Positions 13,887 to 60,207 of a stretch of 64,000 nt of DNA are shown here, in pieces. The DNA lies in contig JANJGN010000026.1 in assembly GCA_026770705.1 (NCBI GenBank), forward strand, positions 36,456,001-36,520,000, read 5' to 3'. The DNA is from Isurus oxyrinchus. Lineage: Eukaryota. Position numbers and translations under genes: made by a program. Every line of letters begins with the position of its first letter. The stretch's first letter is position 1. Below the pieces are notes generated by a model. That model saw nothing but the letters and a program-made list of their open reading frames with translations. It was not told the DNA's origin and did not search any database.

Positions 13887-14178
13887 ATCTGAGCGATGGA
13901 GATTCTGTTACTCAGCGCGAATCCTCGCTCACACAGGCAGAGCGAGAAGATGTCGCTTTAACCTGCATCTTTACTGGCGATGGTTATTACTTATCCTGGT
14001 GCTGTCAATACCCAGACAGACAGCCCGAGTTTGCACTCCAGAGACACATGGGCGGTGATTCTGAATTTGCTTAGAGCCGGTTTTCTGATACATTCCAGCA
14101 GACAGACAGATTGTACCGATTGACCTTCTCGGAGCTGCGGCTGTCTGACACCGCAGTATATTACTGTGCACTGAGTCT
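13887..14178 (+). pseudogene. TCR alpha/delta V pseudogene (paralog of 60803-61100)
   Basis: AG acceptor at 13885-86. Reads DSVTQRESSLTQAEREDVALTC...SWCCQYP...LSDTAVYYCALS with an in-frame TAG at 14072-74. Degenerate RSS CATAGCG-12-TCAATAACT. No leader found. Confidence 0.9.
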
Positions 14179-14661
14179 CATAGCGATTGTTCCTCGTTCA
14201 ATAACTGCTGCAGCTTTCTGGGTTACAGCTTCTCTCTGTTGAGGGCTGTTTACCACAGCGGGTCAGACACTGTCACGTGAATCCATTCCTACTAGCAATA
14301 AAACAAGCACAAGAACAAGTACAACAAAAACTGCATCTGAAATCGGTCCCTTTGATTGCTGACCCTCTTCCTGATGATTGCATTAACGTTATGGGGGCTG
14401 AATTGGCTGCTCGCCATTCCCCATTTCCCAAAACTATCTCCAGACCCTTTGCTGGAACCGTTCTACTAGTTTAGCTTCAGAGGCAGTTCGTGGCAAACAG
14501 AAAAGGAATAATTGTTCTGAAACATCAGTCTGCAGTGGAAACAGCAGTACTCCAAGCTATAAGGGCGTAATAATTATATGAACCAGTAAATGTTCCTAAA
14601 TGTAAAAGAAATTTGGACATATTAAAACAGAGCATGTGTAATCTGAGCAGTTCCTGAAAGT

Positions 14662-15121
14662 GTGCTGCCATCTTGCGGGAGAAATCAGAATTGTCCCCGT
14701 CATTGTTTCCTTCAGTTCAGAGAACTGTTGTTCAGGAATTATCTTCCGAAGACACTCAAAGGGCACAAATCCCTACGGCAATCCTCATAAGCACCATCTA
14801 ATTACGTTCATGTTGAACAATGGCTCTCTCTTTGATGATTGCATGAACGGAATGAGGGCAGAATTGGCTGCTCCTTATTCCCATTAAGAAAACACACTCC
14901 CACCCGCTTTCCTGGTGCCAGTTCAGTTGGTTTCCCGCTTCTTCTGACATGGCTGCAATAATTGGTTGTTTCTACCGGCCTGCAGGGGAAGCAGAAGTCC
15001 GCCAGCTCGAGACGATTCGAATAATTTGATGAGCCTGTTTAAATGTCCCTCAGTGTTAAAGACTTTCGGACATATTGAAAAGAATTATCCGTTTCTGAGG
15101 TGTTGCTGCCACCTGGTGGAA
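14662..15121 (-). promoter_or_regulatory. Two CTCF-like motifs (14662-14680, 15103-15121) in a tandemly duplicated ~460-bp block
   Basis: The reverse complements TCCCGCAAGATGGCAGCAC and TTCCACCAGGTGGCAGCAA match the CTCF core consensus. Confidence 0.6.
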
Positions 15122-16892
15122 GCAATCAGAATGCCGCAGGCAATATTTTCTTCAATTCAGAGCGACTGCTTAGGAGTAATATTTCTAGGAGACTCAAAAG
15201 GTAAGTAAGATCGATTGTTGTAATTCTATATCGTGATAATACTATAGTTGCTGCACTAGGGTGTACCTCTTTTTATATCACATTACACTGAGTGGTCAGC
15301 ATTGATTGTTGCCTGAATATACAATGTGTGAAGGCGTAAGTTTGGTGAGTGAGGGTGTTCAGTGAAGATACAAATTAATTAATCAAAATAAATGTAATTC
15401 GCTCAATAAAGATGGCAGGAGAGGTGATGTGTCTCGGCTGCAGCATGTGTGAGCTACTGGCTTGCACTGCAATCCATGGCAACCACATAAGACCATAAGA
15501 CTTAGGAGCAGAAGTAGGCCATTCGGCCCATCGAGTCTAGGTCCGCCATTCAGTGAGATCATGGCTATTCTGATAATCCTCAACTCCACTTTCCTGTCTT
15601 TCCACTATCACCCATGATTCACTTACTTACTGTATTTCTCAACCTTGGATATATTTAACGACCTAGCCTCTTTGGTAAACAATTCCACAGATTGACGACC
15701 CTCTGAGAGAATAGATTCCTCCTCATCCCTATTTTAAGTGGGGGGCCCCATTACTCTGCGATTATGCCCACCCCCACCCCCCCCCCCCCCCCCCCCCCCC
15801 ATCCCACGTCCTAGGAAACCCTGTGCCACTCTGCGTAACATCTGTCGCTTGTAAAATGCTAGAGTCAATTATTAAGGAAGTAGTAACAACCTAACTAGTG
15901 TCTTACAAATGTTCAACATGACATGTACAACTCTTTTCCACAATGCCCCTATTAATAAAGCCTAAGATACTGTATGCTTTATTAACTGCTCTCTCAACAT
16001 GCTGTGCCATCTTCAATAGCTTATGTACATATATATACGCAGGTTCCTTTGTGCCTGCATCTCCTTTAGAGTTTGTCCCTTTATTTTATACTATTTCTCC
16101 ATATTCTTTCGGCCAAAATGAATTGCATCACACTTCTGTGGCATTGAACTTCTTCTGGCAAACCACCCACGTCTCTATGTCCTTCTGAAGTTCAAATCTA
16201 TCCCAAACAAAATTCACAAAGTTTCCAATCTTTGTATTATCTGCTAGTCTTGGAATTTATCTCAGAACAGCACAATCTAGTTTCTTACATCCAGGTCACC
16301 ATAAGAAGACAAGTGTTATTCGTGGGAGCGTTGCTGAGCTGGAAGTCAGTGAATAGAAGCAGCTCGAGCTGCGCTGCAGCCAGTGTCCTCATTGTGGGAA
16401 TAGTTCAGCTGCTAGAGACCGGGGTTGGGCATAAGAGTCCGGTACGTTCATTAGGGACTGTCTCGATGTCCTGGGCCCACATCCCACCTTTAACAAACAC
16501 CACCCAATACGAACTCATGCACCGACCTCCCGGTTCATCACTGTGGGGTAAGGAGGGCGGCAGTACAACTGGCAGAAAGAAAAGCTCCCTACCCCCAGCC
16601 CTGTACAACAGAGTATTGTGGGAGGGGATTTCACATCCGGATCACAATCCCAATGTAGAGTCAGAAAATTGCAGCCTCCTTTTATAAACCTGTCTCTTAT
16701 TCACAAAACATTTAGCCAGCGACCCGAGAACCGTGCGGCCCATCAATGATCTCAGCTAAGCTGCCCTTTGTAAATCAACTCGATCCCCTAAGGTGTTTCA
16801 GTCCAGCCCTGAAGTCCGGTCTCCCAGGGCAGTCCAGGGCTGCAGTCTCCAGCTCCCCGTCACATAAACCCCCAGCTCTAGGCAGCAGAGCG

Positions 16893-16935
16893 ATGGGAAT
16901 CCTCCTTGTTTTCACCCTGTGTGTCTGTATACCCC
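16893..16935 (+). CDS. Leader exon of NAR-TCR V
   Basis: ATG-MGILLVFTLCVCIP is hydrophobic. It is 43 nt (phase 1) with a GTGAGT donor at 16936, in frame with the V exon. Confidence 0.9.
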
Positions 16936-17083
16936 GTGAGTACCGATCAAACAAACCGACATTGTGTGGGTTTAATATAAAGCTGCTTGAGTCCATCCCA
17001 ATTACAGACAATGTCTGCGGGTTTAACCCCGCTCCGTGGTTCGGCTCTGATGGTCCATTACACTCTCTCTGTTTAATTTCCAG

Positions 17084-17371
17084 GCTCTTTCAGTCAGTCA
17101 GTGACACAGACCCCAGCAGCGGTGACCAGGAAGGAGTGTCAGTCTCTCACCATCACCTGTGCTTATTATGGTTATTATTATTTACAAAATGGACACTTCT
17201 TCAAACAAACCCAGACCGGGACAGAGTGGGAGCGGATCTCCAGCGGGGAGAGATTTGTTGTGTCGGTGAATAAAGCAGGAAAGACATTTTCACTGGAAAT
17301 TCGGGACATGAGAGTTGAAGACACCGCCAACTATTACTGTAAAGCTCAGTATAGATACAACATTGGTTAAT
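17084..17371 (+). CDS. NAR-TCR V segment (IgNAR-like V, lacks CDR2)
   Basis: AG at 17082-83. Reads SFSQSVTQTPAAVTRKECQSLTITC...GHFFKQTQTGTEWERISSGERF...DTANYYCKA. Short NAR-type FR2/CDR2 region and an extra FR1 Cys at 17137-39. Followed by a J and a leaderless V. Confidence 0.88.
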
Positions 17372-17399
17372 CACAGAGGAAAAGGCCTGAACAAATAGC
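17372..17399 (+). promoter_or_regulatory. RSS with 12-bp spacer after NAR-TCR V
   Basis: CACAGAG (17372-78), 12-nt spacer, ACAAATAGC (17391-99; 7/9 to consensus). No nonamer is present at the 23-nt position. Confidence 0.7.
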
Positions 17400-17713
17400 T
17401 CTGTACAATTAAAATATATATTCTCCGGGCCCAGATAGTGAATTGTCGGGTTGATGTTATCATCGCTGGAATCTGATTACGTTTTATTGTAATTTCCACC
17501 ATTCCATTATCTTTCTTTGATATTTGTCTCGGTTTATATGAAGCGAACATCTCGTTCCCTGGACCAGTTACTCAGCCCTCAGGGCCTCACAAAGCACAGT
17601 GTGAGCCAGCAGACATTTTGAAACATTGAATATTGTTTATTTTTTTCAATCCACTGAATATATGGCAGTTTCTACTGTCTGGTGATGATTTCCCGCCAGG
17701 TTGAGTTGTCGGT

Positions 17714-17752
17714 GGTTCTTGTGCCGGGGAGACTGAGAGCAGTGTTACTGTG
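17714..17752 (-). promoter_or_regulatory. 23-bp-spacer RSS of the NAR-TCR J
   Basis: GGTTCTTGT (17714-22), 23-nt spacer, TACTGTG (17746-52). Confidence 0.88.
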
Positions 17753-17805
17753 GTGGAAATATGATTCTGTGGATGGATCCGGTACGATGTTGACTGTCAT
17801 AGCCG
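17753..17805 (+). CDS. NAR-TCR J segment
   Basis: Reads WKYDSVDGSGTMLTVIA with a GxG-T-x-L-T-V J motif. Phase-1 GTAAGT donor at 17806 and an upstream RSS. Confidence 0.9.
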
Positions 17806-19054
17806 GTAAGTGACTCCAGCCACCCTCCCCCTCACACCTGTTGCGGCCTGTCCTAGCTAATGTTCACCCGCTGCTTTTTATTGTGATCAGTGTCAGTTCA
17901 GTCCCACGAAAAGGAAAACAGATGGTTTTCATAAGGAAACCTCTCTGTTGGCTTTTTCGATTTGGGGGCAGAATATTATTCAGGAGCCGGGTCGAATGTC
18001 TAGGTGAAACTATGTGTGAGATCTGTCGGACTAGGCGGTCAACGGGATCAGGGTGGGTGGAGGATGGAGTGTAAACATAGGCATCAATCAATTAGGCCGA
18101 ATGGCCTATTCCTCTTCTGCAGATTGTGTATAATGTAAAACCTTCGAGAATACTCCGCTCAGAGAACCAGGGACAGAATCAGTCAATGAGCGGAAAGAAT
18201 TGAAATTGTCAGAGAGCCGGAAGAGACAGCTCCCAGTGAGTAACAGGGAAACCACTGCGGAAACTGAACAGACTGATCCCAACCGACAACTGAGAGAGAT
18301 TGGGACAAGTTCCCACGATTGCAAAAAGCGCAAACAGCACATTAACGTAAAATAAAGTGAGAGTAACTGTAAATATTTCAAATTAAAAGGACACGGAGAA
18401 ATTTGGGCCCTCATGTTAGATGAATATAGAGAAACAGATCAAAAAGTTGATAGAAACTCCCGAGCAGTGGTCAACTCCAGCAAATGATTAACCTTTGACC
18501 ACCTATGTTCACTATCGGTTTGGCCCAATCAGTGCTGATGAATCTCATCAAGTTATTATGGATCTTGCTTTGATGCTAAACAGTTCGGTTAGTCTCGGGC
18601 AATCATTTTGGAAACTGATTGCTTCGCTGATAATAAAATGTTCCTTCTGGAAAAATAGAAACAGAAATGTAATATATATTACATGCTGCACTGCAGTTGA
18701 AATCCGGTCCATCCTGTCGGTGCTGCCCCTCTAAAAATGCAACCCAATTATCCCCACTACTCTCTTTCCCCGTAGCCCTGTGTTTTTCCATGTTCCAACA
18801 TTTATCCATTACTCGTTTGGAAAACACCCTTAACCAGTTTCACCGTCTGTTCAGACAATGCATGCCAAATAGTAAGAACTCGCTCTGAAACACAAAATAA
18901 CACCTCATCCTTTCACTGCTTCATATTTCAATAACAGTGAATGAAGTTAAAGCAGGTTATAAATTAAACAAACTCACCCAAAACCACAGCATCTACTGCG
19001 ATTAACAAGTTTCCCAGTCTCTAAATAGATTAAGATCAAATTTTTCTCCTGCAG

Positions 19055-19360
19055 ATTCCAGTTCCATTGTATCCCAGAATCCGCCTGTCCAAACCTCTGC
19101 TGTGGGTGACACCGTTACTTTAAGCTGTGAGTATTCAGGTGTCTGTCAGTACACAGTACACTGGTACCGTCAGTCCCCAGGACAGGCTCCGGATTACTTG
19201 CTTCAGAGACATGCTTCAGGAGAAGAGGATAAAGAAAACACTGTTGGGGGGAGAAGTTCTGCTTCTATCGATCCTGCCGAGAAAATCAGCCGGTTAAATA
19301 TCTCCAAACTACAACTGAGCGATTCCGCTGGGTATTACTGTGCACTGAGTCAGCGCACAG
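19055..19360 (+). CDS. Supporting TCR delta V of NAR-TCR (leaderless, CDR1 Cys)
   Basis: Polypyrimidine tract and AG at 19053-54, phase-compatible with the J donor. Open frame SIVSQNPP...LSCEYSGVCQYTVHWYRQ...DSAGYYCALS with an extra CDR1 Cys at 19144-46. No leader exon seen between J and V. Confidence 0.9.
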
Positions 19361-19457
19361 CACAGTGATACAGAGCACGGAGGGTGCCATACAAAAACCT
19401 GAACATGGAGGGATTAGACACAGTGATAAAGAGCAGGGAGAGAGCTGTACAAAACCT
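19361..19457 (+). promoter_or_regulatory. Two tandem 23-bp-spacer RSSs
   Basis: CACAGTG-23-ACAAAAACC (19361-19399, consensus) and CACAGTG-23-ACAAAACCT (19419-19457). Confidence 0.9.
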
Positions 19458-21884
19458 GAACATGGTGGGATTACAGACATACAATGACACAGAGTGCAGG
19501 GATATTGGGAACTCAAACATTATTCACGAACATTTTCTCAAAGGTTGTCCGCATTTTACCGCACAGGATAAAGTGCTTAAACTGATCAGGTCTGCATTTC
19601 CTTCTCGCTCCTCCCACCCTTGAATTTTCCTCTCTGCCCAATGCTCCTGTGAATATACTTCATGAAATTATTTCACATTCTCACACTCCATTATTTCCCA
19701 TGAATCGGTATTTTACCGATTCATAATAACTCAAGTGAGTTTATTGCCACCTTTTTCTACGGGGACCGGGAGATTTTTTTCTCTCTCTTGTTTGGTCCAG
19801 TCCGCCTTTTACCGATTGAGTTGATAAGAAGTCACCGCCTCCTGTGATTTCCTTGATTCTGCCTACGATCGGCTGAGAGATTCTCTCAACTCAACAGGAC
19901 ATTTACTGTCTGTTGGAACAAAAACTGGGGCACCTCTCGACTAGAAAGGATTTAGATCCAGACATGTAAGATAGCATCTCCCACAATTGAGCGTAGCTGG
20001 GAGTGGCCTCTATCTGTGACACGGACCGCTCTGCACTCGGGACAAACGGGCCACACATGCGGACTGGAACAACACAGCCTCTTACAATCGGCCTGTTCTA
20101 TTTCAATCAACCGCCGCAGCCGCGCAGCGGGTTACCGGGCTCAAACATGACGGAAATCAAGTTTTATGAAGCTGATCAATGATTTCCCCATAATGGATGA
20201 CGTCAAAATGCCTTCTATCAGTCACAACCCATGTTTCACCCAATCAACCAGGGCCAGGGGGTCGGGGACCGGTGGGTGGGGGAACAGCCGGGTGTGGGGC
20301 GCCTCCAGCTCAGCTGATAGCCTGGGCATAAGAATGGATGCTATTTGACTAAAGGATGTAATCAGGAGCGAAATGGTGCTGGGCAAATAAATTACAACTG
20401 TTTCAAAGTCTGGATTTAGCTCAGTTTAGGGCCCCATTGTTCATAATTGTTATTAGAACATGCCTGGAGGCCGGATGTTACGTCACTATCCGTGTTCTCC
20501 TCTGTCTCCCCTGAGCAATTAGAGCTGCTCCGTCTGGTCTCACTACCTTCTCCCATTCCTCACTTAGATCAAGGGGGCGCTAATAAGATGATTTTGACCA
20601 GGTTCTCTCTTTCACCTGGCGACTCCTGTAAAGGGTACAAAGATATGAAGTCGAGGTAACTCTTTTTAGGCGAGTCCCCCAGAAGAAGTCCAGAATAAGC
20701 GTTGTCCACAAGTTGTTCATGCCCTGACAAGGTGTCTCAGGGAGTCTCCCGATGTGGTTCACTTCACAGGTGCAGCAACAATGAGCATGAAAGGGTGACC
20801 CCCTGTCAGTGGCGAGCGTCCCTTTAAACTGCGCTTGCAATTAACACCAAGATCGTGTTTTTTCCCGATCACCTGGACTCTGTTGGAGAGTGCTTTACTT
20901 GAAGCATTTGCACCAATCGCTGTGCAGCATCTTTAAGTAAAGCGAGCAGGCATTTTTGCAGCCTCACTGCGGCTCCCAGCTCTGACTTCAACTTCTTTAT
21001 CGACATTACCTCGTGACCCCGAGTTCCATACTCCTCAGTCTGGAGAAACTTCCACCCAGTATCTGCCCTGTAAAGCCCCTGAAGAATACTATTTGTGTTC
21101 ATGAGATCACCTCTCATCCTCTTAAACTCTAGGGATTATAGGCCCGAGCTACTCAATCTCTTCCCATTGGACAATCCATTCATCTCAGGAATCAGCCTGA
21201 TGCACCTTTGCTGCACTCCTTCCAAAGCATCTTGATCTCTCTTCTGTAAGGACACCAAAAATTTACACAGTATTTCAGACTGGAGTCCATTTCAGTCCTC
21301 CCCTGCATAAAACTCACCCAGCATCCTGGGGTCGGATTGCACTTTGAAAGGCGGCCAGAGATCATCCAATCCTTTTCTCCCTTTGGACGAGCTATTTCTT
21401 GCTGGTTGTCAATGAACATGCCACCAGTTTCTAATGGTTCCCTTATGTTCATGTTCTCCTTTATAAGATTAATGCATCATCCTTATTCTCTCACTGCACT
21501 ATGTTGTTTCCATTAACATTAATCAGGGATACAGATAAATTACAGCAATCCCAACTCTCAACATCTGCTTTAAAATAGAGAGAAGTGTCTGCAGTTCCAA
21601 ACTTTCACGTTTCAGCCTGAGGGCTGAAAAGGAGGAGAGTGATTGGTTCTACGAAGACAATTGAAAGATATGGCGGGGACAATGTCACTAATTTCAGTCA
21701 TTGATTGTCCAATAATAAAATTCCATATTTACCCACATCAGGATCACTTATATCTGAAGTCCGTTGTGTCACTCTCCCGTTTTTCTCCCGGGTCAGGTAT
21801 TGAACAAGCCACTGCAGGTATCCAAACTTGCCGCAGTTGTGTTGAGTTTATTCACCTGGTGCCTCATTCACATTGTACGGCTTG

Positions 21885-22160
21885 AGAGACTTGCAGCTGT
21901 TAACCGTTTACACTGTTCAGTTTCTGAATTCCAAACAGAACGGTTAAACGAGTGGTTTCTGCAGTGCGGCTGCCGACAGCTCGAAGACCGTTGATCAGCG
22001 GAACCGGTTTTAGTCACGTTGAAATCACACAATGGGACAAAATTAAAACACAATTTGCTGGAATTCAGAAATTGAACCGGATTTTATAGAATGAGCTGTT
22101 GGCTCTCTCTCTCTCTCTCTCTTTGCCTGTCTATTTCTCCCTGCCTCTATATCTTTCCTT
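21885..22160 (+). repeat. ~280-bp non-coding element duplicated at 26452-26750, ending in a (CT)n tract
   Basis: Long shared blocks such as GCAGCTGTTAACCGTT and CACAATGGGACAAAATTAAAACACAATTTGCTGGAA. Confidence 0.85.
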
Positions 22161-25100
22161 CTTTCCCTGTCTCTGTCTGGGCCTCTCTCCCTTTGTCTAT
22201 TGCATTCTCCTTCCCTTTCTAAATTTCTGTCTTTGTTGTTGTGTCTCTCAGTTGTCTCTCGCAATCTCTCTCTCTCTCTCTCCCTCTCTCTCTCCCTCTC
22301 TCTCTCTTTCTCTCTCACCCCCTCCCGTCTCTCTCGCACACACACTTTCTGCTCTCTGCGTCAATCTTTGTCTCCATCCTGTGACTCTTTCTGAGTGTCT
22401 CGGCATATTTTCCTCCTTTTCTCTCCCTCATCTCTCACTTTCTCTCTTTCATTCTACTTTCCTTGGCTTTCATGCTCTACTTTCATTGGTTCCAATCGAA
22501 AGTGTCACTTTTCCCTTTTTTGTTCAGAATCCAAAATATTCGCAAACTTGACTTTCTGTCAATAAAACGTTTTAACTTTGGATGCAAATTTACAGCCGGA
22601 AAGCATCGGTTTCTGATTCTGGTGCTGTCAGAGGTGAAGATTCAGTGTTCACAAAATGAACTCCCACCATTCAGGTTATATGGCAGCCCAGCGATATTTT
22701 CCGTACAGTGCCTATATCGGTTTGTATCACTGAATATTCAGCACACAATAAAACATCCCACTGTCACTCAGTTCTATATCTGTCAGGATTAAACTGAAAA
22801 AACGATCTGATACCCGGAGTGTGGAATAGATTCGGCCGCCCACACGCTCTGCTTACTGCCCTCCCTCTGAATTCATTTTGATTTTCAGTGTCAGCGCCTT
22901 CTCATTTCTTTGGTGCCAGAAAAGATCATATCGGCGGCGACCTGTGGAGTTTCAACAGGGCAATACCATTCATCCTTTCTCCAAACATGATACTGATGAT
23001 GCAGGTTGCTTAATTGTATTTGAATAGTACAGACTTTCGAATAGTCAATGAACAGAAGACAAATGGATGTTTAGATACTGGAGACAACAATAAATCCTCG
23101 TTCCTTTCCTTCATCGCACCAACATTGTCTGAGGCCATTCAGCTCATCGTGTCAGTGTAGCCTCTTTGGCAGAGGCACCAAATTGTTCGCAATTCACTGT
23201 TCACCCTGCTTTGTCTTGCAAAGGTTTCCATTTCAAGTAGTTACCCAATTATGTTTTTGACATTTGTTATTGAAACTGCTTCCACCAACCTATCCGGCAG
23301 TGCATTCCACAACTCAACAACTTAGAGTGCAAATAAATGGCTGCTCAGGTTGCCTTTGATTCTTTTGCGAATTAATTCAAATCCAAGTTCTCTGATTACT
23401 GAGATTTCCGCCGGTGGATGCAACTTCCCTTATTTATTCAACTAAAACAGCTCATAATTGTTAATATCTCCATCGCAAGTCCTCTCAATCTTTTCTGTTC
23501 AACACAGAACAACCGCAGATTCTCAAGTCGCTCCACAAAGCTAAAGCCTCTCATCAGTTGAAGCTTCCTAATAAATCTCTCCCGCACCTTCTGCAAGACC
23601 GTCAAATCATTCATCAGGTGTGGTTCACATATTTATACACAACAGTCCAACTGAGAACTTAACAGCTTTCTAGAAATATTTAGCAAAGCATCCTAATCCT
23701 ATTGATAAAATCAAGAATTTAAAATCTTCTTTACAGCAGTCCCAGCCTCCACTACCAACTTCAAACGTTTGTGCACTTTGCAAAGTCTCCATCTCTCTGT
23801 TCCGACAGCGCCAATGAACTTGCATCATTATGTTCATATCGGATATCCTCATCACCTTCAGGCATGAAGAAAGTCAAACAGAGATAGGTGAGCAAAAAGT
23901 ATCTGGAGAGGTGCAGAAAGGCTAACTGCAAGATACAGAACCATATGTAGATAACTGTTGAATACCTTTATCAGAATGCACATCACTTAACTTGCTGGGA
24001 TTGGGGGGTCTGGTGGTTGGGGGTTCCAAACACTTACATATTGTGTGGAGTCAGGATGTCACATCGGAAAGACAGGGATAGTTTTTTTGTACGGGCCTCT
24101 CGTTGTCTGGTGACGTTCTGTTTCCTAGAACCTAGCTATCCACAGTGCTGTCAGACAACTTCGCCTAGTGAATGGTTAAATGGACCGTTCTTGCAGCTTT
24201 ATGTAAGGTAGCACATATCACATGCTTCCCAAAGATGTTTGTTATGACTTGGCAGGCCTGGATGTGTGCCAGACGGACCAAACCCACAAGGGAAAATTGG
24301 CCACGTTATCACAGTTTTGCAATTTGTTTTTATTCCGAGAAGTTTTGTGCACTGAATTCAGAAGTAATGAGCCTACTGGAACCTTTAGAGATTTTTTAAA
24401 AACCATATTTAAACATATATTAACAACAGGAAATATTTCAAGCACACACACATACGTTTAGAGTTGCTGAGTACTATAACAAATATCAAACTTTCTAATT
24501 TACCTGATTACAACCTGCACACACCTATTGGGGAAATATTCTAAAATAGATTTTAAATTAAAATAAATACAAGCAAGCAAGGTTAGCAAAGGACACACTC
24601 GACAGCAGAATTCCAAGGGCTTTTACCCAACTTTAGCTCCTCGACACAGTTGATGTTTGCTCACATGGTTAGAGGCTTCCCCAAAGCTATTTCACACACT
24701 CCTGTTAGATCTTACATACTTCCTGAAACATGGGCCCCATTACCTCAGTGGGTTGAATGATTGTGAATATCGGTGTCAAGCAGATGAAAGGCAGCATGTT
24801 ATCAGATTAAGAAACACACCAGCAACAGAGGCTCAGGCCCACAGCAAAAACTTCATAAATCCTGAACAATATGGTATTGGGCACAATCCACCCTCCGAGT
24901 GAACAGTGGAGTTACATGAGTCAGCCGCCTGAAAAATTCAAAGGAATTTAAATCTCTGCGATCCATGTGTGGAAATGGCAGCTTCGATGACAGGCTGACA
25001 GGTTGTTCGACATATGTCAATTTCCATTACCCCCCGAATCAACATCACTGAAGCAGATCACCAGGTCATTATCACGTTGTTCTTTGTGGGAGCTTGAGGT

Positions 25101-29080: not shown

Positions 29081-30090
29081 TTGGTAGAAACATTTGCTCA
29101 AGTTTACAAACCGCCAGAAGAATTTGCTGGAATGCATATATTTCACTGTGGATTTTTTTTTCTGACTGGTATAACTGCCATCCTGCGGTTTTTGTTTTTC
29201 AGCTCAAAAAATAAACTAGGTCATCAAAACCCTGTTGTCTCAGATATAGATAAAGGGAATTTGGAGGAGAGCAGATTAATGAGTCAAATTATCAGAAAAG
29301 TGAAGGCGAGCTGTTTTAAATCCAGTCCAATATTCTTAATGTGGGAGTAGAGAGCCTTTTGAGGGGCTGCGCTCAATAACTGTTCGTGGATTGGTGCACA
29401 GAATATCCCATTTGCTTACGCAGCGCCGCAAAGGCCAGTCCTGAGGCCAAGTCGAGTTACATACACCATTTGTACCAGTGTTGGGTGAAAAACAGAAAAA
29501 GATGTGGACAGGCCCACAAGTTGCTATAATTAATTTACTATTTCCATCAACAATTACAGAAATCAAAGGACGGCCCAGTCCATCCAGACTGCCCCGTAGT
29601 AGGAATTAAGTAAATTGGAATTGCAGTCACTATGGTAATGTAGGAAATGGTCAAATTATGCACAGCAAGCTCCCACAAAGAGCAGTGTGATCATTTGTTT
29701 CATTGATATCGTTTGAGGTTTAAATGCACGGGAGATTTGACCAGCTCTTTTGTGCAATAAGTGGTGGGGTGTTTAAGGTCCTCCTCGGGGAGGAGGGCGG
29801 GAGTGCGTGAGAGGCGGAATTTCCATTTAATAGCTCATCCGAAAAATGCTACCACGGACATTGCAGCACTCCCTTCATACTGGCAGAAGTGTCAGCCTGA
29901 GTTATGTGCTCACGCCTCTAGAGTGGGGCCTGAACACACACATTTCTGATAGAGAAGCAGAGTTGTGAGATGGAACAGTTAAACTGAGCCGCGGATAGCA
30001 CTTACCCACAAAGGGTGGGTTTCTATGAGCTGGTAGTTCTACATCACTGCGGGTTTTTTTACAGCGACAGATGAGTTTTAAACCAATGTG

Positions 30091-30523
30091 TTGCGGCTGT
30101 GTCCTGGATTTCCGCTCAAGTGAACGTTAGAGGAAACTTCTTTCCTTCGTTAGTCTGACCCGCCTCGGATTTCCCTTTGGTAAAATCTGCATCTCTTTTA
30201 CTGCTTCTATCTCGATACAAAATAAAACGCAGAACCTGATTCGTGTGCTGTCTGTACCAGTACAGGCCGGGATTACTATGATTTGTTGTGTAGCTACAGT
30301 CTATTTTTTTGCTGTCTCCTTCAGTAACATGCAGTGAGGTCTGAGGTTGGGACACAGAATCTGCCTGAATCAAACCTGAAATAAAACGTAACGAAAAACG
30401 AATGCAATACTGAGTTTAAAAGTCTATTAACATCACATAACTGCAAATGGATAAAATGATCTCGCTGCACCTACCGAACATCAGCCACAATAAAATCAGA
30501 TGACGATGTGGCATAAGCCACAT
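30091..30523 (-). pseudogene. TCR V pseudogene with leader (L 30523-30475, V 30375-30091)
   Basis: Leader MWLMPHRHLILLWLMF with GTAGGT donor. V reads DSVSQPQTSL...DCSY...LYWYRQ, has an in-frame TGA at 30118-30116 and lacks the YYC segment. RSS CACATTG-23-AAAAAAACC (30090-30052). Confidence 0.9.
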
Positions 30524-47850: not shown

Positions 47851-48327
47851 GTGTAGATGGATGCGGGAGGTTCAAAACACAGCAAAACAATGACATACCC
47901 TCTTATAATATTAACAGCGACAGTGGATGATCTAATGAAATGAAAACAAAACAGGTGTCTGCTGTCACATGAACAGAGTCGAAATATGTCATGATGTAAT
48001 CACAAGATATGAACTAATCTCCTGAAGAGAACCGGTTTAATTTAATAGAGACATGTTCTCATAAATTCATACCAGAGAAAGGAACTAATCTAATGTAAAC
48101 GTGTATCTGTTTTACTTCATCAATAACTGAGCCAGAAATTTACGTTACATAAAAAGAGAAACTCTGAAGTGTAATCAAAGTTTAAACAGGGTCGCCTGTT
48201 ATTTAAGCAATGGCATGTCCTTGCACAATGTTAAATGAGACCTGGTGTGTGTAAGATAACCAGTGACTTGCATTTGCAAACGGAATGATGTGTTTTGTAC
48301 ACACATGCGCTTTAGATAGTGTATATG

Positions 48328-50260: not shown

Positions 50261-53200
50261 ATTAATGATCTAAAGTAAAATAGCAAAACGTGCCTTTTCT
50301 ATTTGCCTCATGCAAAAAAAACTAAAATGTAAAATCGACGAGAAGCGAAAGCAACTTACAAATAAGTATTAATTGAAACGAGTAAAGGAGGAGAAAGAAA
50401 TCAGTGTTGAGTGCAAGAAGTGAGGAATAAGTTGTTGATGCTGTTCAAACGGACTTCAGAAGTGAAAGCGAGACAAGGAACGTTTGATAAAATGTAACTA
50501 AAATGTGCAACGTGCACACTCAGCGTATCTTAGTAGAATAAAATGTTATTTGTTTAATTACATTTTGTATGCATGCTTCTGTCACAATGTCACGGTTAAT
50601 CGCCCCTGATTGAACCAGAATCTCAGTATTTTATTCCGTGCTGTGCCTGCGCTGGGGAGCATTTGATGGTACAGCATGGGAGGGCTTTACCCTGTATCTG
50701 TTACTTGCTCCACCTGCCCTGAAAGTGTTTTCTGGGGAGTTGCAGAGGGATTTGTATCTAACCCATGCGGTTAGTCTGGAAATGAGAGATTGGGCAGAGT
50801 AGAGGAGATTTGTTCTGCATCATACCTGTGCTGTTCCTGTCCTTGCAGTCTTTCATTCGGCCGTATCGAGAGAGAATTTCTCGGCATCTAATTGACACGT
50901 TTAGATGATGATCAATATCGATCGAAATAAAATTTGTAAGGAACTGACATATATAAATTACAAAATGTTTATCAACCTTGATTGAATGACTTTAATTTTG
51001 ATTGATGTCCATTCTTGATGAAGAGGCAAGACGTGACACAAGGCTTCCGTCCTTAGGAAATGAACATTACAACTTTATCAACCGTGGAATTAGTAATGCA
51101 AAGTTTATGTCGTTAATGCAAATGAACATGGTTTGTGTTAGTGACTTGGGCATACCAGGGAACTGAGGCCATGATCTCAGAAATGATGTAGAGAATAATC
51201 TTTAGCAACTAGAAAACAATAAAAACGAGATTTACAGTGCTAATAAAATCAACGTAAAAGCATCTGTAATGAACTGGCATAATAATAATACAGGAAAATC
51301 ATAAAGCAATATTTGAGAAGAAATGGAGAATCCGTGATTCACAGGCGGGATTCCACTGGATGGCTCTCCAGACCTCATCTTTGCCCCAAACTTACAGAAC
51401 TCTCAATTCTCTGTTGCCACACGTGGTGCCTTTGCTTTGTGACATCGCACGGAACATGGTGGTGCATTAAGAGCAAGAGTTTATGATTAAACCACAGGTG
51501 TTATGGCACAGGAGACTTACAGTGACCTCTACGAATCATTGTTTCCATGGCCCAATCACACATGGAGATCTGAAGAAGATAGCTAACAACGCTTTCAGCC
51601 AAAATAGCTCCTCAATGTGTCCTATTCAGACAGCGAGTTTTGTAAATCATTTTTTGACTGAATGTCTTTTTATTGGCGACAAATTGAAATTGTCTGGAAA
51701 ATACCGACTCCCACTGTATCTGGAATCCTACTCTTCCACAACATCCCCGCCTCCTTCTGCACAAGTAATATTTACCGTAATAAAATAATGACGACATTGC
51801 ATATAGAGTGCATACGGAGATACAAATTAGGAGCAGGAGTAGCCCTATCGGCCTCTCGAGCTCACTTTGCCATTCACTAAGATTATGGCTGACATGATTG
51901 TGGCCTCAACTTCATTTTTCTTTCGACCCGTGATAATCCTTTACTCCTTTGTCAATCAAGAATCTATTTAAATCAGCTTTTATAATATTCAATGGCCCAG
52001 ACTCCACCGCTTTCTGGGGAAGAGACGGTAAAGACTCACGACCCTATGAGCGACAAAAAAAATCTCCTTATCTTAAATTGGAGACCACATATTTTTTAAA
52101 CCCTGTCCCCTAGTTATGGTCTCCCTCAAAAGGGAAAACATATTTTCCACATCCACCTTATGGAGATAATAAATAGAGTGCACGTTTGTGTGAAGCACAT
52201 CATTATTAATGTGTGCTAATGCATGCCCCTGGTTATCTTGAACTAAACGCTGTCTCATTTATTGCTGCAGGCGACCATGCCTTTGTTTAATTTACATAAG
52301 ATCATGCTGCCATTGTTATTGTCCTTGAGCATGAGACATAACGGCAATCCCGGTCTCAGTTAGCAATGCAGTGCACCGTGCCTTTGTTCATGTTACCGTA
52401 GTTGCTGGCTCTAGTATTAATCAACTACACATTGTCTCCATCGCAATAAACCGCATCTCCTTTTATCAAATTAAATACCATCCCAGTGATTATGTCATGG
52501 CACCTTTTATCTCTATTCATATTACGTTAGAAACAGTTTTTCTTTCTGTAGCATTAGACCTTCCCTGTCGCTCTTCATATACACCAGACCATGCTAATGT
52601 GCAAATATATGTAATGGAAGCAGGAACAGATCACTCGAACCCTCGAGTTCGTTCCACCAGTCAATAACATCCTGACTGATCTGATTGTAACATCGACCTC
52701 ACATTCCCGCCAACCTCCGATAACCTTTCGCGCCACCTCGGCCACCGTGACACACTTTTGTGTTGGCCTGAGGTCGCGAAAAGCGCGGTTGACACCCACA
52801 CAGCACTGGGCGATGTCAGTCGAACACTGCGCCCATGCTGGGTTTCTTAAAGAACTATTCAGTTATCAAGAGAGGCGCTTCAACTCGGCGAACAAGGCGA
52901 AGACATCGGACTACAATGTTTGGAAGGGAGGGTGGGGGCGTTGGGGGTGGGAGTGCGGGGGTAAAAACAAAAACTGCCGGCTTTTTATAAAGAAGGAGCT
53001 GAAAGCTGGCCATGTTTGTATTGATGAGTAAACTGCAAATTTGTTTCCACTTTCCAATAAATGACGTTATTCATTCTGAAAGGAAACGATTGTGTCCATT
53101 ACTCCAGCCGTATTTCCCTTTAGAAATAGTAGATAACTGCCAGTTCGTTACACTCTCCTGCTCTTTTCACTTTGCCCCTCTTTTCCAGTATTTATCCAAT

Positions 53201-54953
53201 TCCCATTTGGAAGTTACTGTTTAATCCGTGCCCAGCTTCCTTCCAGGCAGCACATTCGGGGCCAAAATTCACGTCTCAAAAATAACTCCTCATGTTATCA
53301 AATACGTTATTTTAAGTGTAAGGGCTAAACGTGGAGATCGAGTCTCTGAGGTGTGGAGTTGTTGCTGAGAAAGAATGAATGAAAGAAAGAAAAACAATCA
53401 GGCATTTACATAGCGCCCTTCCCGGCCTCAGGGCGCCCAAAGGGCTTTACAGCCAATTAGAAACTGTTGTAACGCAGGAGACGCGGCAACAAAATGTGGG
53501 CAGAGCAAGATTCCACAAAAAGTAATGTGATAAATGAGCACAAAACTGGTCCCACTGGTGTTAAATGAAGGATAAATATTGGCCAAGCGAACTGGGGGGA
53601 ACACTTTGCTATTTTTTTTAAATTGTTGAATAGAGACAATGAGACATTTTGCAATTCACCTGAGGGCGTAAACATAGGCCATCGTTCATCATCTCACCCA
53701 GAAAGACAGCATGTTCGATGACTCAGGGTTCCTTCAGTACAGACAACAAGAGACTGTCGGCGATGGAATATGAGATTTACATACCTCGATTGAGGGAGCT
53801 TGAGTGGATGATTTGTTATTAAGGTGACAGAGAGTTTTATGCACTGAGAGACTCTGATGGAAGCAGAACAGCATGAGGGGGTTTTATTATTTTTCACCAG
53901 TTAAGGATGTGAACTTACCTGTTTGTCCGGGGCGGGCAGAGGCGGAGGATGACAAGCACAGAATGCCCTGGGGGTTTCAGCATGAGCTTGGAATGTGCCA
54001 GTCTGCGCATACTCAGCCCAGTGATCTGCAGTGGGGAGCATTGCAGTCATCACCAAGGCGCCTGCGTGGTGATGGTGGCTCACAAACATGACAATGGGAC
54101 ACGGGCATGGTTACAGGTGGCGGGAAAAGATAAACCCAGGTTACTGTGTGAGTTGATCAGCAAGAAAGAGGGACCAGGCAGCAAACAGGATGCTGTTAGC
54201 TGGCTATGTAGAGTTGGGGCTCAGGAGAAGTCACAGATGCCGTTTGATAGCTCCGTGCACTTAGAGTTCAGAAGCCCTGGGCAGTAGAGAAAGGCAGCAG
54301 AAGGTGGCAGTCTCCATGCTGCTAAGAGGGTTAGGGCTCAGTGGAAGCTGTGGGAGCCACTGATAGCTTGGTGCAGATGGGGAGATTGGAGCTCAGTAAA
54401 ATGCCCGGGCAGTGGCAGCAGTGAAGCTAGCTGTATGTTCAAGAGCTGAAATTGTGCCAATGATTAGAGATTGAGGTGGAATCTCGGCATATAAGATCAA
54501 ACCACCAGGAGGTGAACAGCCGTGAGGCAGTCCAAGTCAGAGCAGCTTTCGAGAGGATTCAGAGGGTTGTTCTTTGAAAATGAAGAGAGGAATCCCTCGT
54601 GAGGGAGACAAAGATTCTGTAGCTCACTGTGCTCACTGACGTCTTGGTGGGTTGCTGAGAAATCCATGGAATCTGTCTTGGTCTCATCTTCCTTTCAATA
54701 TGCAGTGAGGTCTGTTCAACCACAATTTGCTCACTATTTCATATTTACCTTATGTTAATTATGAATATTAGAGTATCAGATTGATATTGCAAATTGTTTT
54801 ACATTGTTCCATTTGCATGGTGCTGCCAAAGCTTATTTTGTTTATTCGAAACTGTGAAATATTGTGGCTGTATTCTGATAGTAAGCAACCGAGATTTCGA
54901 ACTTTGTCAACTTTAAACAAAACATTAGTGGTCCCTAACTGCTTGATAACACA

Positions 54954-55845
54954 CTATTTAAAGCAAAAGGCAAGGGTCACAAAGGGACATTTCAGCACCT
55001 TCTGCAGCTCATCCCTGAACTTGGTCTGGGCAACTGCGAAGATGAAGATGTTATTGCAGGAACTGAATAACAGGAGCATGTTGGCTGTCTCCTGAAGGAT
55101 GAAGTGCGGGTCATTGAAATCTAGGCCGGTGAAATAGGCATCATCCGCAACCTGCACGTAGAGGAAATGTCCGACATAGGTGACCCACAGGAGGAGGAAG
55201 CTGAAGGAGGTGGTGAAGAGCAGGACAATGGACCTCTTGCAGTTGGCAATCTCTGGGTCTCCATGACCCTCGATGTCCCGGACCGTCCTGCGTGTTCTGC
55301 TAAGATGTGCCTTACGGTCAGGGCATTGAGCAGCAGAATGAGGTGGAACGGGAAGAAAGGGATCAAGATGTGATCTAGCCAGTCGTAGGCCTGCCAGGTG
55401 GGCAAAATGTAGTAGCTGGACTTAATGTCGCAGAACGAAAACACCCCATCCAGAATATACAAGGGCTGGTAGGTGAAGTAGAAAGGGACGTTCTTGGTGC
55501 AGCCCAGAGCACTGACCAGTCCTACAACCAATAACGCAGTTTTCTTGGTGCAGTATCTGGTCTTCGGGCCCTGATTGCAGATGGACACAAAACGGTCAAA
55601 AATTAAGGTCACTGTCAGCCAGACTGAGACATCCCGGGTGGCATAGACAAGCACGGTGCTGACAGCGCACCCTGGAGTGGTAGATAGGACACTATACCTA
55701 AAGTAAATGCCACCAATCCGGTTGAGGATAATGGCATCGCTCATGACAAGGACATCGGTCACCGCTATCGCCACCAGGTAGTTAGTGATGCATCGGGAGA
55801 GCCCGCACCGCCCTCGGGATAGGATTATGATCACCACCAAGTTGG
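54954..55845 (-). pseudogene. GPR139-like GPCR pseudogene (exon 2 only; inverted paralog of 46091-46992)
   Basis: Colinear with the intact copy (NLVVIIILSRGRCGLS, FDRFVSIC, QETANMLLLFSSCNN). The acceptor is mutated CAG>CAT, there is a 7-nt deletion near 55301, and exon 1 is absent. Confidence 0.9.
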
Positions 55846-56069
55846 ATGTAAGAAATAAAAAGAGAGAAAAAAAACTGAGAGAACTCCAGACACCATCTAC
55901 TGCCTCATCCAATCTATTGCTGAAACTCTGATGATCAGTCCCTTCACCACCTCCAGACTCCAATTATTCCAAATTAGTTGCTAACTGTTCGACATCCAAC
56001 GTTGCATTGAACATTTGTCAACACAGAGGACATTACAATCAGTTCTGGTCACAAACTCTGCCCTCTATC

Positions 56070-56573
56070 CACTGCGCCTCGTCTTCCACACTCAGGCCGC
56101 TTATATTGAGATAACCGGACTGTTTAGACTTGTCAGCAGCCGCCAGATATCGTCCTGAGATTTCATCTTTTCTCAGTCCTACTACTTTGGTAATTATCCA
56201 GCTTGGAGGCTGTGCCGATTTATGCTGATACCATTGCATAATGTCTATAGCCTGGTCTGTATATTCGCAATCTAACTGCACCGAACCCCCTTCTGACACG
56301 GTTAACATCACTGGGGTCTGAGTTACTGGATCGGCACACAGTCCGCCTGTGAAAATAGAGAAACAGAAGAGTATACGGTTAAAGAGGATCCATCTAAACA
56401 TCTAAATAACTGCGCAAATTCCCATGAACAAAGCTGTTCATAATATGTATACATCTGCTCGTTAATCCTATTAATTGCTAGTGCAAACCCTTTGCCTCAA
56501 TCTGCTAATGTGTTTTGATTAACATAATCCAGTACTTACTGCCCCAGACAGCCGCCAGTATAATCAGAAACAT
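56070..56573 (-). pseudogene. TCR V with intact leader (56573-56540) and V exon (56346-~56070) truncated at its 3' end
   Basis: Leader MFLIILAAVWG with GTAAGT donor. V reads DPVTQTPVMLTVSEGGSVQLDC...WYQ...SVEDEA and then lacks YYC and any RSS. Confidence 0.9.
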
Positions 56574-56773
56574 GTCTGTCCGAATCTCTTTCAGAGAATG
56601 TGAATGGAATGAGCCAGAGATTGAAGAGGAGAGAGGGAACACCGGCTTTGTTCCGCTCATTGTTCCACCCACACACTGCAGGGGGCCAGGCCCGTTGTGA
56701 TCTCACTCAGGAAACCATCTCTATTGGTCTTGACGTTGGCCACACGTGACTTTCTAATTAGCATGCTTGGGCT

Positions 56774-56792
56774 TGGCGCCCTCTGCTGGTGG
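56774..56792 (-). promoter_or_regulatory. CTCF-like site upstream of the minus-strand V promoter
   Basis: Reverse complement is CCACCAGCAGAGGGCGCCA. Confidence 0.65.
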
Positions 56793-57841
56793 ATTCTGTT
56801 TTCATCCGGTTAAGGGGGCCATTGATTGGATTTGGGGTTTATTGATTTACATATCAAAATATGAATGTCATTTTTTTCCCAGAAGTCTAAATGGGAGCTG
56901 ATCAGAATCAATCTTTTTTTCGTTGGTGTTTATGCAATATTTAAATAATATTAAACGTTTATAACTCGCTGTTTAGGGATCAGGGAACCACCATTTACAT
57001 TGAATGTCAAGATATTGGAGGTAATACACCAGAACGGTACCAGGAATGACGGCCTCCAATAATGGACGAAGGAAATTGGTAATACTATTCCTATGTCAAA
57101 GAATTAAAGGAAGTACTTAATTGAAGTACTCAAAATTATGAGAGGTTTGATGAACCAGATCGTGTACTGTTGTTTCCACTGGGAGAAAATTCGATAATCC
57201 AAGTACCCAAGTTTAAGAGAAAAGAGACAGGGAAAGTTTATATTCACGTATCACACTACCATGTGTTCAAATCTGAATTGTACTGTCTAAAGGGATGGCA
57301 AAATATTCATTAGAAACTTAGAGAAGAAAAGTATATGTAAGTTAGAAGAAAATTATATGCAACTTCAAAGAAGAAACAAACTGCCGACCTTCTTGGAAAA
57401 TGTGGGGTTGAAAGATGAATTGATAACTCTTCCCATGAGGCATAGACATGATAGGCCGAATTGCCTCAATTTCTTGCTCTAAGATTCGATGATTCTAGTT
57501 CCTTCATGTCCCTCCCACTTTACTTGTTGTCAGTCACTTGAACAGTCAGCAGGTGCGGGATAGTCATTGACCTTGAAGGTTCAACAGTCACTATTTCTGC
57601 TCCATCAGTTCCGAGTGCAGATGAGAGTCACCGCACACTTCACAATATTGAGTCTACGGTATCCCCTCCCACAGTTTCCGTTTGCTGCTCTCGCACTGAC
57701 TCGAGTTTGTTATTGGAGAAATTGCTGCCGCTGGTCCACTCCTGTCATTGGTTGGATCAGTAGTGCAGTGGGGTGGGGATTTGTATTTCTGCTCCGACAA
57801 AAGCCTCCTCGCACTGCAGAGTTACAGACTCAGGAACTGTC

Positions 57842-58345
57842 ATGGGGAACCGTTTCGCTTTTTCCTCATCATTATGTCACTTCTCAGTAAATATTTCCTT
57901 CCCCATGAATAATCCGTTTCTTCTAATTACTGCAACACAGATGTTGTTCTTGACAAAGCAATATTGATGGTGATGGTGATGATTATGTTGATCAATATGA
58001 GGCTGATACTGATTGTTGTTATTGCTATTGTCTTATGTTAGACTGGAGCCACCAAGACATAGTGGAACTGCCGGTTGCTGCAATAACGTTTGACGAGAAA
58101 AGTAATATTACAGTAGCTTGCACATTGAAAACAAGCACTTCTAACCATTATGTGTACTGGTACAGTCAGCGCCCCGAGCAGCCTCCACAGTACATGCTTT
58201 ATATTCTGGGAGGGAAACCATTCAGAAATAAGGACATCAGTGATCGGTTTTCAGCAATGTTTAATGAAACTGTAAAGATTACCGAACTCATGATCAGTAA
58301 CATCCTGATCTCTGACAGCGCGGTATATTTCTGTGCGATGGACCC
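57842..58345 (+). CDS. TCR V segment (V exon 58042-58345 open; leader 57842-57886 apparently frameshifted)
   Basis: Reads QDIVELPVAAITFDEKSNITVACTL...YVYWYSQ...SDSAVYFCAMD. RSS CACACTG-24-ACAAAAACC (58346-58385). The leader is 45 nt and out of phase with the V exon. Confidence 0.85.
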
Positions 58346-58406
58346 CACACTGCTGCAGAGATATAGCGGCTACCGTACAAAAACCCACACTGAGAGTTCC
58401 AGTTAG

Positions 58407-58425
58407 TGGTCAGCAGAGGGCGCTC
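58407..58425 (+). promoter_or_regulatory. CTCF-like site just downstream of an RSS
   Basis: TGGTCAGCAGAGGGCGCTC lies about 21 nt after the nonamer. Confidence 0.6.
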
Positions 58426-59195
58426 TCAAACCGAAAAACAGGAGCAATAATCCCGCCTCCACACTGAGAAAAGTTGCAAAAAAACACAGCCTTCTACAAG
58501 AATAAAAAATGACAATTTCAACAGTAATATTAATTTGCGATTTCAAATTACACATGTAATAACATTAACATTACGGACCAATTTGTGGTGCCTTACGTCA
58601 CTTCTTTCTCTTTGGATGCCTTTCCTGCCGATTTGATCCTTCTCCCGCCCTGTCTCCACGCGTTATCCATATTTGCAGACATTTCCTTCATCGGACTTTC
58701 GTTTAAAGGTTTCAAACCTTTGATACTTCGTTGAACATTAACTCAGAACTATGCTAACCCAGCCGTCCATAGGCTCTGTCCCAGTTTTAAACGGTTTAGC
58801 CAATGAAAACTCAATTTATTATTGAATTATTTACTAATGCTGACACACGTGTTCACCCTGCTCGCCTCCAATTTGGAATAAATCTGAAAGAACAGCAGTT
58901 ATTATCGAGAGGCAGAGATATATCACTTTCGAAGGGGACATTATTATTGAATTCAACTCCTTACAAATGGGTCCGATGTGTGACAACATTTACTGCTCTA
59001 GCGCCGCCCACACATTCCGTTTGCTGCCGTCGCTCTGACCCGCCTTGCCTCCCCTGTTATTGAGCAGTTTGATGCCGCTGCTCTCTGTTTGGCATTGTTT
59101 GGATCAGCAGTTCAGCGGGACGGGGCTCACACAGCACAAACAAATTTTGATCAACACAGTTTAACCGCTTGATATTTCGTTCCTCTACCTTGAAG

Positions 59196-59488
59196 GCAGA
59201 CTATGCGCACATCCAGTAACTGAGGCACCGGTTGCAATAACGGTGTCAGAAGGGGGTTCGTTGCAGTTAGACTGTGAATATAGAGAACGGAATATGTATT
59301 ACTTGCAATGGTATCGGCAGCAGACGGCACAGCCTGCAAACTGGATTATTACCAATATCATAGCACTGAAGAAAGATGAAATTTCAGGACGATATCTGGC
59401 AGCTGCTGACCAGTCTCAAAAGAACGGTTACCTCAAAATCAGCCAACTGAGTGTGGAGGACGAGGCGGTTTATTACTGTGCAGTGAGG
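59196..59488 (+). CDS. TCR V segment with open V exon; leader not identified; 12-bp-spacer RSS-like signal
   Basis: AG at 59194-95. Reads HPVTEAPVAITVSEGGSLQLDC...LQWYRQ...EDEAVYYCAVR, followed by CACAGAG-12-TAAACAACC (59489-59516). Confidence 0.85.
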
Positions 59489-60207
59489 CACAGAGTTAGA
59501 ATCTTGTTAAACAACCTCAGCGGCTTTTGATCCCGGGTTCCAGAGGAGCAAAACAGACAGGTCTATTTACCGCTGTTTTATTGTTCTGTTTGTCCTTGTC
59601 CAAATCCACAGAGAAGCAGATTTGGGAAATATATAAACTTATCTTCATCCGCCTTTTATAGGGTAAATAGCTCCCAAATTACGCGGATATCGATTTGCCA
59701 ACAGAGGCAAAGAAAGCTCTCAGAAGTGGAGTTCCTATAACTGATAATTCTGGGTTGCTCTTACAGAACCGTTAACTCAGGTGGACCCAGGATGGATTGG
59801 TGGATGGGTGGATTGATTAGTTTTTATTGGGGAAAAATAATTCTATTATTTCGTTGGACGGGGGCGTGAATATCTTCATTCACATTGAACAAGTGCTCTT
59901 TTTAAGACGATGGTCAATTAGATATCAAGCAATCTCTCAGATCAATTAGTCATCAAGGGTCTATATTTACTGGCCTCTCTGCTCAGCAGAATGCGCCGTT
60001 AAAGTCTTAGTTCTCAGAAATCAATAGATTTGTGGTTATGGAATTGACATCAGACCAATGAGATCCAGTGATCTCAGCTCTTCCTTTGGCAGGTTCTGCA
60101 GGGAGTGACATCAGATCAGAAGCAGCCAGTGTTCTCAGCTTTTTCTTGTTTCATATTCTGCGGGTTTCTGACGCACAACTTGTCCCCCAAACCCCGGAGC
60201 AGCTGCA

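Follow-up and report, generated by a model that had tools for sequence, protein, structure and literature searches.

The 64,000 nucleotides of Isurus oxyrinchus DNA analysed here (contig JANJGN010000026.1, referred to as C26, positions 36456001-36520000; the window) form part of the variable (V) region of a shark alpha/delta locus for the T cell receptor (TCR) and contain, at 16893-19473, a cassette of NAR-TCR, a form of TCR-delta in cartilaginous fish that rearranges twice, both of its V domains being made by somatic rearrangement (PMC1845163, PMC5931798, PMC3457774, PMC12227049). The cassette comprises a leader, an IgNAR-like V with a cysteine in the a-b loop, a joining (J) segment and a leaderless supporting V-delta with a cysteine in complementarity-determining region 1 (CDR1). 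The region 17341-17399 within it, which a preliminary description had proposed to be a putative fusion of V and diversity (D) segments, is an inherited V-D coding joint that has spread by segmental duplication. We hold it to be probable, with good confidence, that this fusion is an inherited RAG coding joint, that five other lesions flagged in the window at V coding ends and recombination signal sequences (RSSs) are ordinary, and that fully joined VDJ exons present elsewhere in the locus are spliced into the receptor chain as invariant domains.

An inherited V-D coding joint

One unit of a 58.4-kb tandem duplicon makes up most of the window, and close and distant paralogs can therefore be used for comparing each lesion. 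V and D are fused in 13 of 30 fetched cassette paralogs (window included) and split in the remaining 17, which confirms the fusion. Split paralogs have the layout V-22RSS...12RSS-D-12RSS...23RSS-J, in which the V 22-RSS is paired with the D 5′ 12-RSS in keeping with the 12/23 rule, whereas fused paralogs pass from the V end straight into the D 3′ signal. In 38 split cassettes the V and D signals are 358-398 bp apart; this interval has vanished completely from the joined cassettes examined (5/5). At 17341-17371, as in the junction classes B-D described below, the signals and all intervening DNA have been removed with the breaks lying in coding ends, as is characteristic of a RAG coding joint; the DNA flanking the window joint is intact.

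The 13 copies with the window's junction (class A) have diverged flanks and are spread over five contigs. The same junction, with a canonical heptamer, occurs in three contigs (loose ends) of a DNA run from a second species (organism B), with 26 of 30 bases alike; it is thus inherited and predates the split of the two species. Confirmation in related species had been proposed in the preliminary description, and for the V-D fusion it was obtained. The junction anatomy indicates that germline RAG likely made the joint.

The window joint translates as CKAQYRYNIG followed by a stop 1 nt before the heptamer. With respect to NAR-TCR membership, the N-terminal V is related to IgNAR V, the window V being 78% identical to a paralogous joined exon that matches solved VNAR structures. 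NAR-TCR V domains are assembled from split segments that rearrange somatically; in the window the V-D pair is pre-joined, and 38 of 59 paralogous cassettes are split.

Recurrent V-D joining across the locus

An exact NAR J pattern occurs at 61 places in the 4.98 Gb genome searched, and 59 distinct cassettes were assembled from the fetched loci. V and D are joined in 21 of these, in four junction classes (A-D), and split in 38; a fifth junction class (E) was found at three further places. The class D joint, a textbook example, consists of 22/22 V-end bases (1 mismatch), two untemplated bases and 17/17 D bases. Class A is too diverged for non-templated or palindromic (N/P) additions to be read, since the window joint matches the D end at 3 bases only. 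A tree of join origins, built from shared cassette parts without the junctions (53 rows, 4 of 11 class A rows kept), rejects a single origin of all V-D joins (approximately unbiased test, p-AU 4e-8) and of A+B+C (0.0009), and does not reject one of B+C (0.48). These results argue that V-D joins arose independently at least four times; in at least four independent lineages both ends of the join lie within ~20-nt coding windows beside the signals. D-J-only joins were not seen among the NAR-TCR cassettes.

The preliminary description had extended germline RAG joining to TCR V segments as a locus-shaping process. Such joining is genuine and has happened repeatedly, but its clear examples all lie in compact NAR-TCR cassettes in which a 12/23 partner lies ~390 bp away.

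Within the 38 split cassettes (L014-L030, L151-L219), diversity at the V 3′ ends, in D and at the J 5′ ends exceeds that of the intervening neutral DNA ~2.5-3-fold (pi 0.27-0.34 versus 0.11-0.13; gap runs 23-35 versus 5-9 per 100 nt), and the RSSs are almost without indels. Diversifying selection on the germline CDR3 is the likely cause of this coding-end diversity. Open-and-shut joining was considered as a cause and judged less likely than selection, the bases beside the heptamers being mostly conserved. Several NAR V exons have a poly-G expansion at the ISSGG site (L152, L172, L173, L211, L160), in some cases in frame and in others frameshifted. A contig from run X18, placed at L253:4801, passes from an NAR V end into what resembles the spacer and heptamer of a J RSS, which suggests that a further variant arose by germline deletion.

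Fully joined VDJ exons in series

A gapped pattern identified 18 in-frame V(D)J joins and a DNA search gave 40 scored matches, of which 28 span the junction (17 on C26), so that there are at least 28 joined VDJ places in total. Among the 28 exons, 19 are open, five have one shared stop, two are truncated and two are without a detected acceptor. The open exons are 336-348 nt long, with AG/GT splice sites and the same phase on both sides. Where mapped, joined exons form series of one to three between an NAR V-D-J with a leader, which lies upstream, and the supporting V-delta downstream, with triple series of open exons at C26:37.90-37.91 Mb and C26:38.75-38.76 Mb; a stop-bearing copy at C26:25.218 Mb lies in the opposite orientation. 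The junction can be resolved into a V end, a D-like core, some extra bases and a J, and organism B DNA bridges it.

The leader is disabled in 16 of the 19 open joined exons (11 with an early stop, four with a lost ATG and one with a lost donor; the copies are not independent) and intact in 34 of 37 split cassettes. The leader intron (148-150 nt) is retained in the joined exons, which argues that the joining took place in DNA, not via mRNA. Pooled dN is 0.077 and dS 0.174 (dN/dS ~0.44), with all 49 listed pairs, which are non-independent, below 0.75, and the CDR3 cysteine is kept in 16/16 distinct full joined exons listed. A paralogous joined exon aligns with solved VNARs over residues 4-112 (E 2e-20). 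AlphaFold prediction of the joined domain was poor from a single sequence (pLDDT 51.5) and gave an all-beta fold from a seven-row alignment (77.9).

The same CDR3 is present in RefSeq models of Carcharodon (P0001, P0002, P0004) and Cetorhinus (P0005), all of them automatic; P0001 has two joined domains before the supporting V. The automatic models P0007 and P0012 have V ends like those of classes A and E. Carcharodon proteins match the locus at 85-94% identity, and so are near, not identical.

For splicing, contigs were aligned to the joined exon at C26:31159071. Run X1 carries the label ‘DNA?’, which is a guess; its small size (153 million letters), zero depth in unique intron bins and GT-AG joins point to RNA. 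Three X1 contigs run from the joined-exon donor into the supporting V start, one set being identical to the neighbouring V up to its acceptor. One contig links the end of a rearranging-type J to an NAR exon start, and another links the 3′ part of an NAR VDJ to an NAR exon start, its six mismatches and spacing fitting the 348-nt exon at C26:38760669; the latter suggests joined-to-joined splicing. The splices are in frame on both sides, and one contig runs on into intron. In a first read mapping, intronic repeats dominated and no splice joints were present among the matches listed. The contigs of this one run thus contain the arrangement that defines an invariant supporting V of the TCR-mu type, a pre-joined in-frame V(D)J exon spliced in after a rearranging V-D-J, and the joined exons are likely reused as stackable invariant domains.

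We favour, with less assurance than the reading given at the outset, a receptor with a stalk of one to three invariant NAR VDJ exons that arose by germline RAG joins, placed between the NAR V and V-delta and locked by CDR3-cysteine disulphides, giving a chain of three to five V domains. On this model, germline RAG would join only segments that have a 12/23 partner within a few hundred bases, like those of shark immunoglobulin (Ig) clusters, and a fully joined copy would lose its leader and be retained to serve as an invariant spacer. In the mature chain of TCR-delta, a rearranged NAR V would then stand on one to three fixed NAR domains on a rearranged V-delta; the CDR3 cysteine of each fixed domain would bond to the cysteine in the a-b loop of the domain next above it, by analogy to the CDR1 cysteine of the supporting V-delta.

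The five other lesions and the distribution of breaks

Cleavage by RAG falls on the border of the heptamer and depends on CAC; RAG is not known to cut inside spacers. The preliminary description read all six lesions as possible RAG remodelling at coding ends and RSSs, of which one, the V-D fusion, stands; the other five lack a heptamer-border break joined to a signal-bearing partner and are likely ordinary decay and duplication. The 23-to-12 spacer contractions reported at 14186 and 59496 are real 11-nt deletions (13/30 and 6/30 paralogs, respectively), but they lie inside the spacers and not at the RAG cut site. A separate clade of the former family has a different, 12-nt spacer deletion, and the CAT-type heptamer at 14186 should be dead. 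Hybrid joints or swapped signals as the source of the two 12-bp spacers were rejected, the DNA past each nonamer being the paralogs’ own flank. The 19-nt deletion at 30091 (14/30 paralogs), reported as flush with the heptamer, leaves 1-4 original coding bases.

At 56070 a coding end had been described as joined to foreign DNA. It is joined, but the partner is locus-internal intergenic DNA in which there is no RSS, and the break is a duplicon junction that recurs 58,441 bp downstream, as a tandem-duplication junction would. L126 is an intact copy of the interrupted V (98.7% identical), and the partner DNA is found in its original context in L132 and L133. The two RSS units of the reported duplication at 19361-19457 are likewise present, but they belong to a family-wide minisatellite (58-62-bp units, one to 10 copies behind supporting V-delta paralogs) and are not a lesion of this gene. 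Alone among the five, the minisatellite has its first base at the heptamer. A single ancient event related to RAG is compatible with this start, but the number of copies is explained by unequal crossing-over. At L250:1733-2346 and similar places there are up to 10 units of 62 bp, many with canonical heptamer, 23-bp spacer and nonamer, which could serve as a RAG landing pad or undergo repeat rearrangement. Literature searches found no report of tandem RSS arrays, which is not proof of absence.

Indel positions were compared in alignments of five paralog families (three picked for a window lesion and two unselected; 30 loci fetched for each, exact duplicates dropped), with the near-RSS zone defined as the last 30 coding bases plus the RSS, and the non-coding zone as intron plus 3′ flank. 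The near-RSS zone (345 nt) had 15 distinct indels, the non-coding zone (1325 nt) had 51 and the exon bodies (1355 nt) had 22. The enrichment near heptamers that the preliminary description had proposed to look for exists relative to exon bodies (P=0.004), but not relative to non-coding flanks (P=0.39 in the five families; P=0.67 without the three family-selecting events). The two unselected families on their own give P=0.82 against non-coding DNA and P=0.36 against exons, a less conservative count on three families gives P=0.48, and events of at least 4 nt give P=0.09 against non-coding DNA, or P=0.34 without the three ascertained events. The contrast with exons alone is what purifying selection on exons would produce; the earlier expectation that random decay scatters indels across exons is a null that ignores this selection. 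For damage near ordinary V RSSs, non-coding DNA and not exons is the proper comparison.

Weighing of the explanations

Several observations count against our interpretation. Germ-cell RAG activity is deduced from junction anatomy alone, and the window joint is old and diverged, with just three bases matching the present-day D end; it also contains an in-frame stop, which D-J joining would have to trim away for productive use. The join-origin tree can be misled where copies have undergone gene conversion. In three of the 19 open joined exons an open leader persists, its donor altered, and these exons could also begin a chain. The splice support comprises five assembled contigs at a depth of ~3-7 from the single run labelled ‘DNA?’, none spanning the whole chain, and runs X18 and X19 splice the NAR exon start to the same out-of-frame upstream exon (L253:5071). 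This upstream exon was not found in the fetched loci, and the splice is possibly that of a sterile transcript. Finally, five deletions span or abut the cleavage site where 1.3-1.9 are expected (P=0.01-0.04, post hoc; P=0.03-0.09 without the ascertained event and 0.23-0.41 in the two unselected families), a hint that leaves room for some single-RSS RAG scars.

This last excess favours the version of the preliminary description, in which all six lesions are germline RAG scars at single RSSs (open-and-shut joints, failed joins and signal-end duplication). The minisatellite beginning exactly at the heptamer, the duplicon breakpoint 21-22 nt from a heptamer and the evident access of RAG to the locus in the germline also fit it. 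We nonetheless regard it as quite unlikely: near-RSS breaks show no enrichment over non-coding flanks, in all five families or in the unselected pair; two lesions lie within spacers, 30091 keeps coding bases and the partner at 56075 has no RSS; and a further duplicon junction (13770) lies a long way from every RSS. Somewhat less doubtful, though still improbable, is a reading that accepts the germline joins and takes the fully joined exons for by-products in decay, or for invariant first domains that stand alone, with the spliced contigs minor or non-productive. Nine of the 28 joined exons are broken or without an acceptor, the RefSeq models P0002, P0004 and P0005 place a leader directly on the joined domain, and the three open leaders and low-depth contigs of one run point the same way. 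Against this, separate lesions have disabled the leaders, whereas the frames of the exons and their two splice sites have been preserved, dN/dS is ~0.44, the same CDR3 occurs in two other shark genera, and the X1 splices are in frame on both sides. We consider it highly improbable that the V-D fusion reflects a deletion by chance, somatic rearrangement in the cells that were sequenced or a mistake of assembly: the class A junction does contain little recognisable D sequence, but there are 13 copies with diverged flanks on five contigs, the junction occurs in a second species, and the ends lie beside signals in at least four lineages.

Relation to known systems

The comparisons below rest on the consulted portions of the cited papers. 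The cassettes share with NAR-TCR the leader and IgNAR-like V (a-b loop cysteine, no WYRK tryptophan), their own D and J, and the leaderless V-delta with a CDR1 cysteine, and differ in that some are pre-joined V-D and others have one to three extra, fully joined NAR exons. Germline-joined NAR-TCR exons were not reported in literature searches whose coverage did not include the primary NAR-TCR papers, which is not proof of absence; the source study of NAR-TCR is said to be that of Criscitiello in 2006.

That germline joining is established for shark Ig clusters, a premise of the preliminary description, is borne out by the VD-J and VDJ heavy chain clusters and NS4 light chains (PMC2193156, PMC6795676). 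As in those clusters, split and joined versions occur side by side, there are several independent joins, the signals and interval have been removed and the leader intron is kept. In contrast to the Ig clusters, the present joins are in a TCR locus, and the joined exons are leaderless inside a longer chain.

The marsupial TCR-mu, named in 2023 as the sole known germline-joined TCR (PMC7615758), similarly has a rearranged antibody-like V atop an invariant pre-joined V exon with a structural role (PMC7615758, PMC3457774). However, the marsupial V-mu-j takes the place of the supporting V and is believed to have originated by retrotransposition, whereas here the joined exon is added before a still-rearranging V-delta, keeps its intron and is up to three deep. 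The VH-derived domains, retrotransposed origin and separate TRM locus of TCR-mu have no counterpart here, where the domains are VNAR-like, the leader intron is kept and the exons lie inside the alpha/delta V region; the joined NAR exons are an analogue of TCR-mu, not a member. The newt Pleurodeles waltl has pre-joined, leaderless TRD V-J exons (PMC12698447), which likewise are germline-joined TCR-delta V exons without their own leader, expressed by splicing. Unlike the shark exons, these encode a single conventional V-J domain on a neighbour’s leader, which is not IgNAR-like and, in the consulted part of that source, is not described as an extra domain.

A shark TCR locus has thus undergone germline joining on at least five occasions, of which four gave V-D and one VDJ, and the split relatives alongside allow dating. 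On the reading preferred here, the result on RAG in shark germ cells extends from Ig to TCR genes, with RAG acting on compact cassettes only. If the stacked exons are translated, the TCR would be longer than any described so far in the literature compared, RAG would have created a new structural exon, and there would be a third route to an invariant supporting V.

Genomic setting and further observations

The TCR alpha/delta V region is spread over ~23-40 Mb of C26, and parts of it lie on several contigs without a placement that may represent other haplotypes. The window has 12 V segments, 10 of them within 13887-59516, where 11 had been counted before. Feature coordinates are given in Table 1.

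Table 1. Features of the NAR-TCR cassette and of the other lesions in the window (window positions)
Feature	Position	Strand	Remarks
Leader exon of NAR-TCR V	16893..16935	+	ATG, open, GT donor
NAR-TCR V exon to second canonical Cys	17084..17340	+	Open frame, a-b loop Cys, no WYRK tryptophan; defining features from PMC1845163 (part consulted)
Germline V-D coding joint (class A), 31 nt	17341..17371	+	V 22-RSS, ~390 bp interval and D 5′ 12-RSS all absent
Retained D 3′ 12-RSS	17372..17399	+	Mismatches: heptamer 1, nonamer 2
23-RSS of NAR-TCR J	17714..17752	-	
NAR-TCR J segment WKYDSVDGSGTMLTVIA with GT donor	17753..17805	+	
Leaderless supporting V-delta exon, CDR1 Cys, open frame	19055..19360	+	Features per PMC1845163 (part consulted)
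Two tandem 58-bp RSS units behind supporting V-delta	19361..19473	+	Part of family-wide 62-bp RSS minisatellite starting at heptamer
Decayed RSS of pseudogene V13887	14179..14206	+	Heptamer CAT..., 11-nt deletion within spacer, away from RAG cut site
V30373 3′ end and 23-RSS	30052..30100	-	19-nt deletion ending 1-4 nt before heptamer; 1-3 nt microhomology
58.4-kb tandem duplicon junction cutting V56326	56040..56110	-	Break 56075/56076, 21-22 nt before heptamer
RSS of V59207, 11-nt spacer deletion, weak nonamer	59489..59516	+	Deletion between TAGA copies 11 nt apart

The duplicon junction at 13770 took away the leader of V13887. The V13887 exon (13887-14179) has a 12-nt internal deletion that is unique to the window copy, the 12 closest copies being without it. 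At window position 18072, ~1.36 kb of the intron between J and the supporting V is absent, and sister copies of the duplicon have that DNA.

The RefSeq model P0001 is annotated as DSCAM-like, an incorrect name by which public annotation conceals the stacked architecture. In Heterodontus francisci, the RefSeq model P0003 has repeated NAR domains before the supporting V, with an identical CDR3 that differs from the joined-exon CDR3 and with an extra CDR1 cysteine; the horn shark may have reached a stacked-domain design separately, with the CDR1 cysteine.

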